Shown here: in pieces, positions 39,966 to 52,460 of the stretch
Layout: each line of letters starts with the position of its first letter
How positions within the stretch are numbered: the first letter of the stretch is position 1
Source of the DNA: Thermodesulfobacteriota bacterium
GTDB taxonomy: Bacteria; Desulfobacterota_D; UBA1144; Nemesobacterales; UBA2774
Assembly: GCA_965216785.1 (NCBI GenBank)
Contig: OZ244197.1
Coordinates: forward strand, 448,001 to 512,000
Reading direction: 5' to 3'
DNA: 64,000 nucleotides
The notes under the pieces: generated by a model
Databases searched by the model: none
What the model was told of the DNA's origin: nothing
What the model saw: the letters and a program-made list of their open reading frames with translations, nothing else
Made by a program: the position numbers and the translations under genes

Positions 39966-41021
39966 CTAATTGGTATTGGAATCCATGAATTGACTCAGAG
40001 GGCCTTTAGGATCAATGATTCTTTTAATTTCTCTGAAAGGTACTACGACAAAGTAAGATCCTTCAGCGTATGAGCCAACAGCATACGGAGCAAAGGCAAA
40101 CTTTATTCCCTCAGGGGATATGGCAAATACTCCAAGGTCTTGTTCATTAAAAGATGTAATTTCTCCATTTACAATCCAGCCTGCTTTCTTCACAAGGAGA
40201 TCATTGATACAATAGGTGGAAAGCGCTTTTAGATAATTTGATCCGGGCTTAAATAAGTCTGATAGTTTGATGAGTGATGCTTTACCATCTTTGATCGAAT
40301 AGTTTGATGAAAGGTAGTAGGTATTCCCGTGCGCGCCTCCCGTATATGAATATACTTCACCAGTGAGGCTCACCAGGTGATCCGAGTAATAGGCAATGGA
40401 ATAACTCCTGTCCTCCTGCCAGCTTCCCGCGGAGTCATTGGTTGAAAAAAACTCCCTTGATTCCCGCAAGAATTTATCCTGCTCGGCTTTGAGATTTTTA
40501 CTAAGCTCGGTATTTATCATTGTGAGTCCCGAATCATCGTATAGAAATTTAGGATAAAGGAGCGAGGACTCTATTTTCGGGCCTCCAGACGCTGTAGTGT
40601 TCACAAAATCCGCGACTTTCGTTAATTTGAAGGGAAGCTTTTTATTACCTTTTGGGTTTGACCACTCCCCTTCGATAGTCCTTGCGTAATCTGAGCTTTC
40701 ATCATTAATTTTGCCTCTGAATGTCCCAGTTATAATGCCCTTTACACCTTTCTCGCTGAGCATAACGGTAGAGTCCTTCGGGTTAATTGTCCCTGACAGT
40801 GAGAGCGGGATCCCCTTTGTATCATAGTAATATGAGCCGTTTATATCACTTGAATCGAATATTAACTCCATCTGAACCTTATTTATCTCGCCTACAGTAC
40901 CGATATAGTAGTAGCGTTTCTGAGTGTTTTCACCGCCTTGCCGTGCTTGAGCGTGAGCATATGGAAATATTGCGAAAGTCAAAACTCCAATAAATACGCC
41001 AACATACATTATAAATCGCAT
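39966..41021 (-). CDS. Secreted DUF3298/RsiV-PdaC-like protein
   Basis: Signal peptide after an AGGAGA RBS (ATG 41021), YSYTGGAHG, LSDLF and FAPYAVGSYAEG. Confidence 0.8.
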   Translation of the reverse strand: MRFIMYVGVFIGVLTFAIFPYAHAQARQGGENTQKRYYYIGTVGEINKVQMELIFDSSDINGSYYYDTKGIPLSLSGTINPKDSTVMLSEKGVKGIITGTFRGKINDESSDYARTIEGEWSNPKGNKKLPFKLTKVADFVNTTASGGPKIESSLLYPKFLYDDSGLTMINTELSKNLKAEQDKFLRESREFFSTNDSAGSWQEDRSYSIAYYSDHLVSLTGEVYSYTGGAHGNTYYLSSNYSIKDGKASLIKLSDLFKPGSNYLKALSTYCINDLLVKKAGWIVNGEITSFNEQDLGVFAISPEGIKFAFAPYAVGSYAEGSYFVVVPFREIKRIIDPKGPLSQFMDSNTN

Positions 41022-41284
41022 CTTCTCTCCTTTTTTATAGAAAGTCACAAAGCGCGTTAAATTATATATTAGCACAAAACAGAATACTTAGGAGAAAAGT
41101 ACGAGAATATCACCATAGGAGAGTACAAATTGAGTATTTTCAGGTAAGAATATGACAATATTTGCAACTTTATGACAGAATACGTCTATGCGTTCAAAAT
41201 TTGCCATATTCTCGCAAATTGCATATATTGTATAATTACAGAGACTTACAAAACTTTCAAGTGAATTTGATATATTTTTAGCTC

Positions 41285-41301
41285 TTGGCACACAGTTTGC
41301 T
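41285..41301 (+). promoter_or_regulatory. Consensus sigma54 promoter with no downstream CDS
   Basis: TTGGCACACAGTTTGCT matches TGGCAC-N5-TTGCW exactly. Confidence 0.8.
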
Positions 41302-41311
41302 TTTATAATTA

Positions 41312-41409
41312 ACAATAGCAAACACAACATATCTGCTATGCCATAACATATTCCCCATCCTCTAAAGGGTGAGTCCGTGGATTAGTTCACGGACTCACCC
41401 TTATTTTTT
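41312..41409 (+). ncRNA. Candidate sigma54-dependent small RNA of about 95-100 nt
   Basis: Lies between a consensus sigma54 promoter and a strong plus-strand terminator. No ORF (only ATG-CCA-TAA); 5' hairpin ATAGCA/TGCTAT. Confidence 0.55.
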
Positions 41410-41410
41410 A
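41365..41410 (+). terminator. Strong intrinsic terminator, possibly bidirectional
   Basis: AAGGGTGAGTCCGTG...CACGGACTCACCCTT 15-bp stem followed by ATTTTTTA on the plus strand. Confidence 0.88.
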
Positions 41411-41440: not shown

Positions 41441-42214
41441 CTATTTACCTTTAAAAAGTAAGTCCCTCATCTGATCCTGAATCTTATTATTCGTAGCCAG
41501 AATCTCCTTCACGTAAATGCTGTACTCCGCGCCGGAGAAAAGCGATACACTGCCTCCCGCTTCCTGAACAATTAACGCTCCGGCTGCCGTATCCCAGGGG
41601 TTAAGACCAAGCTCCCAGAACCCGTCGAACCTTCCGCACGCTACATAGCACAGGTCAAGCGCCGCCGAGCCGTCACGCCTTACGGCCTGCGCCGCCCGAA
41701 TAAAATTTGAGAAATGCCTCAGGTTTTCTTCGACCATCTTCTCGTTTTCATGCACAAAACCCGTGCACAGATGGCACTCGTCTATACATTCCGTATGCGA
41801 TACGCCAATCGGCGCGCCGTTCAAATAAGACCCGTTTCCTCTACGGGCTGTGAACATCTCGTCCTTTACCGGATCGTAGACAAGCCCCAGCTCTATAACA
41901 CCCTTAACCTCTAGTGCGATGGAAACAGAGAAAAAAGGGTATGCGTGAGCGTAGTTTGTAGTACCGTCCAGCGGGTCTATGAGCCAAAGGTAATCTGAGT
42001 CCGTTACGTGCTTGCCAGACTCTTCAGCAAATATATCGTGCGTTGGAAAATTATCTTTTAATATGCCAATAATAAGCTCTTCAGAGAGCGTATCTACCTC
42101 GGTAACCAGGCTGTTCTTGGCTTTAAATTCGATCTCTTTTACTTTGCCCAGGTTCTTTAAATGAATCTCGCCCGCTTCGCGCGCGGCTTTCTCTGCAATT
42201 TCTAAATACTCCAA
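41441..42214 (-). CDS. suhB: Inositol monophosphatase family protein
   Basis: AEES, WLIDPLDGTTNY, GSAALDLCYVA and PWDTAAG. Confidence 0.88.
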   Translation of the reverse strand: MEYLEIAEKAAREAGEIHLKNLGKVKEIEFKAKNSLVTEVDTLSEELIIGILKDNFPTHDIFAEESGKHVTDSDYLWLIDPLDGTTNYAHAYPFFSVSIALEVKGVIELGLVYDPVKDEMFTARRGNGSYLNGAPIGVSHTECIDECHLCTGFVHENEKMVEENLRHFSNFIRAAQAVRRDGSAALDLCYVACGRFDGFWELGLNPWDTAAGALIVQEAGGSVSLFSGAEYSIYVKEILATNNKIQDQMRDLLFKGK

Positions 42215-50529: not shown

Positions 50530-52460
50530 TGCGTTTCTACCTCCCTCCATTTTTCAGGATCAAGCTCATCCTGTATGTGCTTCAAAAACTTATCAACTTT
50601 CATTGAATCCATATTTTTACCGCCGAGCCTTCTGGGTGAAACCGTCTGCTCGGCAACTTCGTTATTTCCGATAACAAGCAGGTAAGGAACTTTCTCTACC
50701 TGCGCTTCCCTTACTTTAAAACCGAGCTTTTCGTTTCTAAAATCTTTTTCGACCCTTATCTTAGCTTCCTTTAATCTCCTGTAAACCTCTTCCCCGTACT
50801 CCACCTGCTCATCCCCTATCGTGGCAATTCTCACCTGCACAGGACTCAGCCATAGTGGAAACGCGCCGCCGTAATGCTCGACCAGCACGCCGAAGAACCT
50901 TTCCATAGATCCAAATATAGCTCTATGGATCATTATAGGCCTGTGGCGGCTGTTGTCATCCCCAACATAGCTCATATCGAAGCGTTCGGGAAGGTTAAAA
51001 TCTACCTGAACTGTAGAGCACTGCCAAGCTCTGCCCAATACGTCCTTAATTTTAAGGTCTATCTTTGGTCCGTAAAAAGCCCCTCCGCCCTCGTCCATAT
51101 CGTACTTTAACCCCTTTGAGTCAAGCGCGTCTTTTAGAGCGTGCGTGGCTTTATCCCAGACTTCCACATCACCGACAAATTTCTCGGGCCGCGTCGAGAG
51201 GTATATCTCAAAATCGTCAAACCCAAAAGTTTTAAGGAATAGGATTGTTAAATCGAGAACGCCGAGAACTTCTTCCGTAATCTGGTCGGGCCTGCAGAAT
51301 ATATGCGCATCGTCCTGTGAAAATCCCCTCACACGAAGCAGCCCGTGAAGCACTCCGGAGCGCTCATAGCGGTATACGGTGCCTATCTCAGCCCAGCGGA
51401 GTGGAAGGTCCCTGTAGCTCCTGATCCGGGTCTGGTAAATCTTTATATGAAACGGGCAGTTCATGGGCTTAATCTGATACTCACTATTCTCAAGCTCCAT
51501 CGAGGGGTACATGTTCTCTCTGTAAAAATCCACGTGCCCGCTTGTTTTCCATAAATCTAAATTTGCGATATGTGGTGTATACAAGAGCTCATAACCGGCC
51601 CGATCATGCTGCTCGCGCCAGAAATCCTCAATTACCCGCCTTACGCGTGAGCCCTTCGGGTGCCAGAGTACAAGCCCAGCCCCCACTTCATCCTGTATAG
51701 AGAACAGGTCAAGCTCTTTACCCACTTTTCTGTGATCTCTTTTTTTCGCTTCCTCTAATTTCTCAAGATACTTTTTTAAATCTTTATTATTCCAAAACGC
51801 CGTGCCGTATATCCTCTGGAGCATCGGCTTTTTCTCGTCCCCTCTCCAGTACGCCCCCGCAATGCTAAGTAGCTTAAAGGATTTTACATCCCCCGTGGAA
51901 GGCGCGTGAGGACCGCGGCAAAGGTCGTGCCACTCTCCCTGCTCGTAAATGGTAATCTGCTCATCAGGCGGGAGGTCATTTACAATCTCGACCTTATAAT
52001 CCTCACCCTCATCGGAAAAAGTGGAAATGGCCTCGTCCCTGGACACTTTTTTCCTGGTAAGAGGCTTTTTTTGCGAGACAATCTCTTTCATCTTAGCTTC
52101 GATTTGCTCCAGGTCCTCCGGAGTGAATCCGCGCGAGTAATCAAAGTCGTAATAAAACCCATTCTCAATTACTGGGCCTATGGTAACTTTGGCATCGGGG
52201 AATATTTCCTGCACCGCTTCTGCCATCACGTGGGCAGCAGTGTGCCTGATGAGCCCCAGCCCTTCTTCCGAGCCTGCTTTTACAGGCTCTACGGTCGAGT
52301 TCTCATTTACCTCAAACCAAAAATCCACAAGCTCGCCGTTCACCTTTGCGCCTACGGTTCCGCCTGTCTTGCCGAGTGATTCTATTATTTCCCCGACGGC
52401 TGTGCCCTTAGGAAAGGTAGTCTCTTCCCCGCCAGGGAGATTTATCTGGATTTCTTCCAT
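50526..52460 (-). CDS. thrS: Threonine--tRNA ligase
   Basis: TGS domain, RHTAAH, DLCRGPH, KPMNCP, YRYERSG and MIHRAIFGSMERF. Confidence 0.98.
   Translation of the reverse strand: MEEIQINLPGGEETTFPKGTAVGEIIESLGKTGGTVGAKVNGELVDFWFEVNENSTVEPVKAGSEEGLGLIRHTAAHVMAEAVQEIFPDAKVTIGPVIENGFYYDFDYSRGFTPEDLEQIEAKMKEIVSQKKPLTRKKVSRDEAISTFSDEGEDYKVEIVNDLPPDEQITIYEQGEWHDLCRGPHAPSTGDVKSFKLLSIAGAYWRGDEKKPMLQRIYGTAFWNNKDLKKYLEKLEEAKKRDHRKVGKELDLFSIQDEVGAGLVLWHPKGSRVRRVIEDFWREQHDRAGYELLYTPHIANLDLWKTSGHVDFYRENMYPSMELENSEYQIKPMNCPFHIKIYQTRIRSYRDLPLRWAEIGTVYRYERSGVLHGLLRVRGFSQDDAHIFCRPDQITEEVLGVLDLTILFLKTFGFDDFEIYLSTRPEKFVGDVEVWDKATHALKDALDSKGLKYDMDEGGGAFYGPKIDLKIKDVLGRAWQCSTVQVDFNLPERFDMSYVGDDNSRHRPIMIHRAIFGSMERFFGVLVEHYGGAFPLWLSPVQVRIATIGDEQVEYGEEVYRRLKEAKIRVEKDFRNEKLGFKVREAQVEKVPYLLVIGNNEVAEQTVSPRRLGGKNMDSMKVDKFLKHIQDELDPEKWREVETQ

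Follow-up and report, generated by a model that had tools for sequence, protein, structure and literature searches.

Within the 64,000-nucleotide stretch of DNA analysed here (the window), a gene for a DUF3298/PdaC-domain protein (39966-41021) and a gene for a suhB-like inositol monophosphatase (41441-42214) both lie on the minus strand, as the preliminary description of the locus had stated, and the spacer between the two, for which they serve as divergent and convergent neighbour respectively, contains a series of features on the plus strand. A sigma-54 -24/-12 box, TTGGCAC-ACAGT-TTGCT (41285-41301, plus strand), can be read directly from the sequence with its GG at 41287-41288 and its GC at 41299-41300, and from this box the predicted transcription start is placed at about 41312, just as had been claimed. 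The window contains two instances of the pattern TGGCAC-N5-TTGC, where 0.07 would be expected, and the whole genome contains 18; the other occurrence in the window (51918-51932, minus strand) lies within a coding region and probably arose by chance. Upstream of the box is an enhancer-like palindrome, TGACA-N5-TG(T/C)CA (41153-41167, plus strand), which its conservation and its sharing with other promoters mark as a predicted sigma-54 activator site, likely for PilR, and a second, weaker copy is found 20 bases 3' of the first (41173-41187, plus strand; its matrix score is 7.9, the 99th percentile of the background being 7.6).

The predicted small RNA has a length of about 98 nt (41312-41409, plus strand) and is delineated by its fold and by BLAST and covariance-model homologues; we refer to it as copy A of a family with a common CAUCCUC core. 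Taken as a 99-nt RNA it folds with a z-score of -8.2. It begins with a weak hairpin (41315-41339, plus strand) formed by ATAGCA (41315-41320) and TGCTAT (41334-41339), which is present in the predicted fold at -4.3 kcal/mol with a z-score of -2.7, and continues with an unpaired extension, GCCAUAACAUA (41340-41350, plus strand), that is conserved in four genera of the family. There follows the near-invariant core UUCCCCAUCCUC (41351-41362, plus strand), the complement of GAGGAUGGGGAA and the predicted pairing seed, whose mean predicted probability of being unpaired is 0.998. The single-stranded, anti-Shine-Dalgarno-like tract of the preliminary description, ending in UUCCCCAUCCUCU (41351-41363), is thus borne out. 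The RNA is closed by an intrinsic terminator (41365-41409, plus strand), found by terminator prediction and by covariation, the stem of which (41365-41402) has the 15 Watson-Crick pairs originally described, or 17 when extensions are included, and is followed by six U. Terminator prediction gives a call for the plus strand alone, and the U-run is confined to that strand, as is evident from comparing the plus tail ATTTTTTATC with the minus tail TAGAGGATGG. In agreement with the initial impression that no recognised small RNA is matched, no family of Rfam 15 reaches its gathering threshold, the best scores being 18.8 and 18.5 bits (E 5.9 and 9.8), and a weak match to CrcZ in the Rfam searches was set aside. 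The siblings of copy A described below are likewise under the gathering threshold, and a match of NsiR1 to one 3'-end copy was set aside at 29 bits against a gathering threshold of 39.

The records bearing the element are those of Candidatus Dadabacteria. By BLAST against 61 genomes the 3' 70 bases are found in 13 other genomes at E <= 1e-11, and a covariance model run on 120 genomes of the class gives 59 matches of at least 37 bits in 38 genomes, with a gap below, of which 27 are of the type of the window (type A) and 32 of a paralogous type. In 20 of the 33 genomes of the family, type A is flanked by the same pair of genes. Counting loci with upstream DNA, a sigma-54 box is found within 200 nt of the core in all 20 homologues of the family and in 22 of 26 over all families, the remaining four being homologues outside the family without a nearby box, and upstream of the box the 22 sigma-54-type homologues have the full TGACA-N5-TGTCA palindrome in 15 cases, its right half-site in 6 and neither in 1. 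Each of the 12 core positions is identical in 25-27 of 27 homologues, while the positions 15-30 bases upstream of the core are identical in just 9-20 of 27. The predicted distance from start to core ranges from 14 to 117 nt, and since this stretch is variable and not alignable, the 5' hairpin, though real in the sequence and the predicted fold as first described, is not a feature of the family, being restricted to the two element-bearing genomes of the genus. Two-sided changes are seen at 9 of the 14 pairs modelled in the terminator stem, counts that are inflated by the relatedness of the genomes, and 96% of the cells are paired, slid controls being far lower. Furthermore, among 53 exact core matches in metagenome contigs, a sigma-54 box accompanies 22 of the 32 that have the hairpin and none of the 21 that do not. 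A scan of species genomes with an exact 21-letter pattern, which diverged members would escape, gave 42 matches, and as those outside Dadabacteria-like records have no terminator, there is no sign of the RNA family outside the class. Promoter, enhancer-like site, core and terminator have been retained as a set, the stem covaries, and the spacer is not kept, so that the conservation of promoter, seed and terminator which the preliminary description had proposed looking for in related genomes is indeed found. The element is very probably a genuine small-RNA gene, and we infer from its sequence features that an RNA is transcribed from it. Among sequencing runs no RNA run was listed with the sequence, and five runs yielded contigs that extend across the promoter and are thus DNA-like, which speaks neither for nor against transcription.

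Turning to the control of this gene, the genome encodes 15 full sigma-54 activators and a protein with an RpoN box, which we take to be RpoN. The palindrome and the sigma-54 box also precede a gene of the group-2 sigma-70 family at C1:331802, where the site is retained in full or in half at 28 of 29 orthologue loci with upstream DNA, across families. A matrix trained only on the sites of the RNA (copy A) and of this sigma factor scores above 12 at 10 of the 52 sigma-54-type promoters of the genome, which is to be compared with the background 99th percentile of 7.6, and these promoters include the two training sites, pilA, the pilB-T-C-S-R operon, a second pilB-like gene and two hybrid sensor kinases (pilA and pilB being named by sequence and gene order, and pilT, pilC and pilQ by a separate analysis). 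The promoter of the minor-pilin operon has no such site (score -0.9). Upstream of pilB a site scoring above 7.6 is found in 10 of 11 genomes of the family, and outside it a strong one in 1 of 7. The features of a PilR regulon, namely a motif common to pilA and the pilus operons and co-occurrence with PilR, accordingly hold within the family and are weaker outside it. Two further observations concern sigma factors and sigma-54 boxes in this genome. It has eleven RpoD-like sigma-70 genes, where relatives have up to 12 and most small-genome families 2 (101 genomes of the order), and two of these, at C1:331802 and C1:73507, have sigma-54 boxes upstream. A sigma-54 box with two strong enhancer-like sites is also found at C1:2027760-2027960 (plus strand), right after a tRNA/integrase region and followed only by a 60-codon frame, and may represent another non-coding or remnant gene.

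Reciprocal orthologues of the 15 activators were compared across five genomes, three with the motif and two without. Only two of the activators are represented in all of the former and in neither of the latter; one (C1:247350-248762) is encoded within the pilB-T-C-S-R operon and the other (C1:2666630-2667991) after a prepilin peptidase gene, an arrangement mirroring the two pilRS pairs of Myxococcus (PMC6060248). In Geobacter the sigma-54 promoter of pilA is activated by PilR (PMC2725144). The presence of the RNA agrees with that of the PilR orthologue in 29 of the 33 genomes of the family, the 4 mismatches being genomes of 59-86% completeness, and with that of the co-regulated sigma factor in 31 of the 33. 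In one genus of the family (g2), PilR orthologue, co-regulated sigma factor and copy A are found in none of 10 genomes and the sibling copies B and C are kept, which looks like loss of the pilus regulon. The two genera without the RNA gene are also those without the PilR orthologue, which makes PilR the likely activator, and since this joint absence rests on two genera it reflects one or two loss events only. We consider it probable that the activator of the RNA is pilus-linked, the putative candidates being the PilR orthologue of the pilB-T-C-S-R operon and its pilD-linked twin. The proposal that the RNA is the output of an undescribed enhancer-binding-protein circuit therefore survives as regards the type of control, and fails in that the activator is probably the PilS/PilR system of type IV pili and not an unknown one. 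In the openly accessible literature covered we found neither a PilR-controlled small RNA nor a published PilR site for comparison, and such a site may exist elsewhere.

It could be argued that the palindrome serves a non-pilus enhancer-binding protein with a wider regulon in stress or surface sensing, the pairing of the RNA being as proposed below. The best palindromes indeed precede the group-2 sigma factor and the two hybrid sensor kinases whereas the sites of pilA and pilB are degenerate, and the sigma-factor site is kept across families and thus more widely than the pilB site. This reading is nonetheless unlikely, in that the sole two activators that fit the presence pattern in the five genomes are both located in pilus gene clusters.

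A search for paralogous copies, also suggested at the outset, revealed that copy A belongs to a multi-member family having the CAUCCUC core in common. In the genome CAUCCUC is found just upstream of 10 of 747 predicted terminators against 1.15 expected, and of these ten elements five follow protein genes. The flanks of the CAUCCUC unit differ among copies, and the siblings stand under different promoters. Copy B (C1:631298-631374, minus strand) is the paralogue found at 32 loci by the same covariance model; it has a BtrH-N gene on one side and a secreted-protein or hsp20 gene on the other (region C1:631298-631420, minus strand) and no sigma-54 box. Half of its core, GCCAUCAUCCUCC, is predicted to be paired with the 5' end of the RNA, a structure that hints at processing or a switch. 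A box resembling an FNR site upstream of copy B was rejected, being an internal hairpin found in one genus only. Type C, found with a second model, has a sigma-70-like promoter of the TTGACA type overlapped by two palindromic operator-like sites, TTAAGT-N5-ACTT(A/T)A, and a core, UCAUCCUCCAUCCUCCUU, in which CAUCCUC is doubled in tandem. Allowing up to one mismatch, this core is present in 89 of 120 genomes of the class and absent from reversed-pattern controls, and the genome has three stand-alone copies (C1:954560-954650 and C1:1076780-1076870, plus strand; C1:1733970-1734060, minus strand). A perfect copy of the type C palindrome also occurs at C1:842979. CAUCCUC is furthermore found before terminators in 3' untranslated regions at C1:2139813 and C1:2329955 on the plus strand and at C1:2127719, C1:2120773 and C1:2115881 on the minus strand, three of these sites following paralogous 91-residue proteins with a hydrophobic N-terminus, and these elements are candidate 3'-derived small RNAs.

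The core of copy A is complementary to GGAGGAUG(G), and the corresponding GAGGAUG is found near the start of 27 of the 2936 called genes, pilQ, whose start is preceded by GGAGGAUGG, becoming the 28th after correction of its start. Of 14 family orthologues of a sigma factor encoded between proA and recN, 13 keep GAGGAUG, with its AUG in no fixed frame; the motif is likewise kept at nrdJ in 11 of 14 and at the lipoprotein gene after pilQ in 5 of 5. In control non-coding spacers the commonest three letters after GAGG make up 8/23, 8/28, 8/21, 6/16, 5/13 and 3/12, and two controls are equally fixed at this position, 29/29 inside an upstream coding region and 12/14. It should also be mentioned that in the sigma-factor leader (C1:2322785-2322817) a conserved CCAUCU can pair with the leader's own ribosome-binding site, the start codon that follows often being TTG or GTG, so that a hairpin internal to the leader can explain its conserved AUGG. 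GAGGAU is present in 4 of the 12 genes of two pilus operons against 3.7% of all genes (p 0.0007, post hoc), and a hydrophobic start is commoner in genes with GAGGAU, 63/103, than in other GAGG genes, 317/798, by a crude test. When all 2936 genes are ranked by uninterrupted helix with copy A, the conserved candidates take ranks 14, 62 and 64, whereas for copy C ranks 2 and 3 go to the two sigma factors, and for copy B rank 2 goes to the lipoprotein. The family thus has plausible common targets, with none specific to copy A. The seed is short and near to a generic anti-Shine-Dalgarno sequence, and many mRNAs therefore fit it.

Among the matches listed in a search of 33 genomes for perfect complements, 55 loci included no conserved start-codon site, and the top unconstrained duplex match is a 127-residue gene without a Pfam family. 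Several individual candidates were rejected: ftsZ, third by duplex, keeps GGAGGAGGG or variants of it in 4 of 5 orthologues and not the seed complement; an IHF/HU-like gene has a perfect site in a genus without copy A and a mismatched one in genera with it; rraA has the site in 0 of 4 orthologues and a 72-residue gene in 0 of 2. For an anti-anti-sigma gene, another candidate, no orthologue was found in 5 genomes. Any one named target is a tentative assignment that may well turn out to be wrong.

The suggestion that the RNA binds Hfq is not supported, since Hfq (PF17209) is found in 0 of 61 genomes, where control genomes were positive in 5 of 14. CsrA and ProQ were likewise not found in this genome, which is 92% complete, and it does encode a Jag/KhpB protein. 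The mechanism we propose is that PilS/PilR, or the twin, would activate sigma-54 polymerase at pilA, pilB, a group-2 sigma factor and the small RNA, the unpaired C-rich core of which would pair with GGAGGAUG ribosome-binding sites without Hfq and so lower translation by base-pairing repression. The candidate targets would be pilQ, the lipoprotein gene after it, other envelope genes, a second group-2 sigma factor and nrdJ, and they would overlap with those of the siblings, which present the same core from other promoters in response to other signals. Base pairing at ribosome-binding sites is probable judging from the complementarity, whereas the complete reading, of a sigma-54/PilR-driven RNA that pairs with GGAGGAUG(G) sites without Hfq and dampens translation, is one that we favour by a narrower measure.

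The RNA might also be real and yet bind protein, with CAUCCUC as a recognition motif that titrates an RNA-binding regulator in the manner of CsrB/RsmZ or CrcZ. Such a function would be in keeping with the unpaired 7-mer recurring before some ten terminators, far above expectation, with its tandem arrangement in the C-type copies, its occurrence in 3' untranslated regions and its variable flanks, and with the Jag/KhpB protein. Sponge RNAs however usually hold many copies of their motif and copy A has one only, CsrA is among the proteins not found, and the repeated GGA loops of CsrB/RsmZ-type RNAs are absent, the single GGA lying in the terminator stem region. Furthermore, the exact complement of the core is conserved at the ribosome-binding sites of several genes, which pairing explains directly, and titration of a protein is thus improbable, at a level slightly below that of the non-pilus activator.

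Far less can be said for an action in cis on the convergent suhB transcript, or for a plain two-way terminator with incidental flanks. Although the stem is situated 39 bases beyond the suhB stop and suhB is convergent in 20 of 20 loci of the family, the U-run faces the plus strand only, which also speaks against the idea, raised in the preliminary description, that the hairpin acts merely as the suhB terminator. In other families a gene other than suhB lies opposite this core and stem, and termination alone would call for neither an invariant unpaired core nor a sigma-54 box or enhancer, making this explanation very improbable. A minus-strand gene for a small protein, with GAGG and then AUG in the conserved letters as its beginning, is largely refuted and can practically be dismissed, since despite an AUG within the core complement in 26 of 26 homologues the ensuing frame is 3-57 codons long and unrelated past six codons, in line with the lack of coding capacity noted from the start, and promoter and U-run are oriented the opposite way.

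Returning to the base-pairing RNA driven by sigma-54, copy A resembles several known systems and belongs to none of them. Its mode of action is most like that of the alpha-r8 siblings SisA-D, and its wiring is like that of Pxr. SisA-D of Caulobacter crescentus and the related MmgR are alphaproteobacterial and Hfq-associated, have the core UUUCCUCCCU and repress by pairing upstream of start codons (PMC12559287). Like copy A and its relatives they are dispersed siblings under unrelated promoters, with a weak hairpin, a short unpaired anti-Shine-Dalgarno core and a terminator; copy A differs from them in its CAUCCUC core, its sigma-54 promoter and its occurrence in genomes where Hfq was not found. 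Pxr of Myxococcus xanthus (RF01812) is likewise about 100 nt long, with a predicted sigma-54 promoter and paralogues in a lineage without Hfq (PMC5568312, PMC11928866, PMC5684412), and it has a C-rich tract, deduced in its case from a probe sequence (PMC5568312). The RF01812 model nevertheless has no match in the genome at E up to 10. Pxr furthermore has three conserved stem-loops where copy A has one terminal stem, and follows an nla19-type activator gene, whereas copy A is flanked by the DUF3298 and suhB genes with no adjoining activator gene.

An anti-Shine-Dalgarno-like motif is also present in the Cuckoo RNAs, where it forms CCUCCUCCC loops in 2-4 hairpins (PMC4615179), as opposed to the single motif in the linker before the terminator of copy A. 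NfeR1 likewise combines such a motif with a link to a regulator of the NtrC family, and its pairing partner is a translation initiation region, but it is repressed by NtrC and not activated, unlike what we propose for copy A (PMC10746234). The Qrr siblings are co-regulated and Hfq-dependent (PMC12559287), in contrast to the CAUCCUC siblings with their different promoters. Qrr, GlmY and CrcZ are small RNAs that form the output of response regulators, as proposed for copy A, and so is Dv_sRNA2 of Desulfovibrio (PMC3333781); none of the four gives an Rfam match to the element. The sequence features of sigma-54 small-RNA genes are represented here, in the form of a conserved -24/-12 box at correct spacing, an RpoN-box protein and encoded activators, and Qrr1-5 of Vibrio, GlmY and CrcZ are indeed driven by sigma-54. 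The layout of anti-Shine-Dalgarno sibling RNAs is represented as well, several copies having a short, invariant and unpaired seed ahead of an intrinsic terminator.

Taken together, the element likely represents an uncatalogued small-RNA family of a well-known mechanism class, that of sigma-54-driven, anti-Shine-Dalgarno sibling RNAs, and since the class is well known and the organism uncultured the surprise is limited. For Dadabacteria we found no RNA regulator in print in a search of the openly accessible literature, and a catalogue entry may exist elsewhere. The link to the regulon appears unusually clear, and the targets listed are candidates only. The finding contributes a small-RNA family from a lineage where no Hfq was found, offers a predicted binding motif for PilR of the deltaproteobacterial type, and places a small RNA together with an alternative sigma factor in its putative regulon. 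If the pairing is true, the family would be a clean case of seed-sharing RNAs that act without Hfq, ProQ and CsrA. A yet broader notion, which we regard as rather doubtful, is that of a phylum-wide, Hfq-free network built on the CAUCCUC seed, with the pilus two-component system, a repressor acting on the C copies and the 3' ends of secreted-protein mRNAs as inputs, and with pilus secretin genes and members of the roughly ten group-2 sigma factors as outputs; if this were true, copy A would be the first small RNA in a PilR regulon and would form a feedback loop on pilus assembly.
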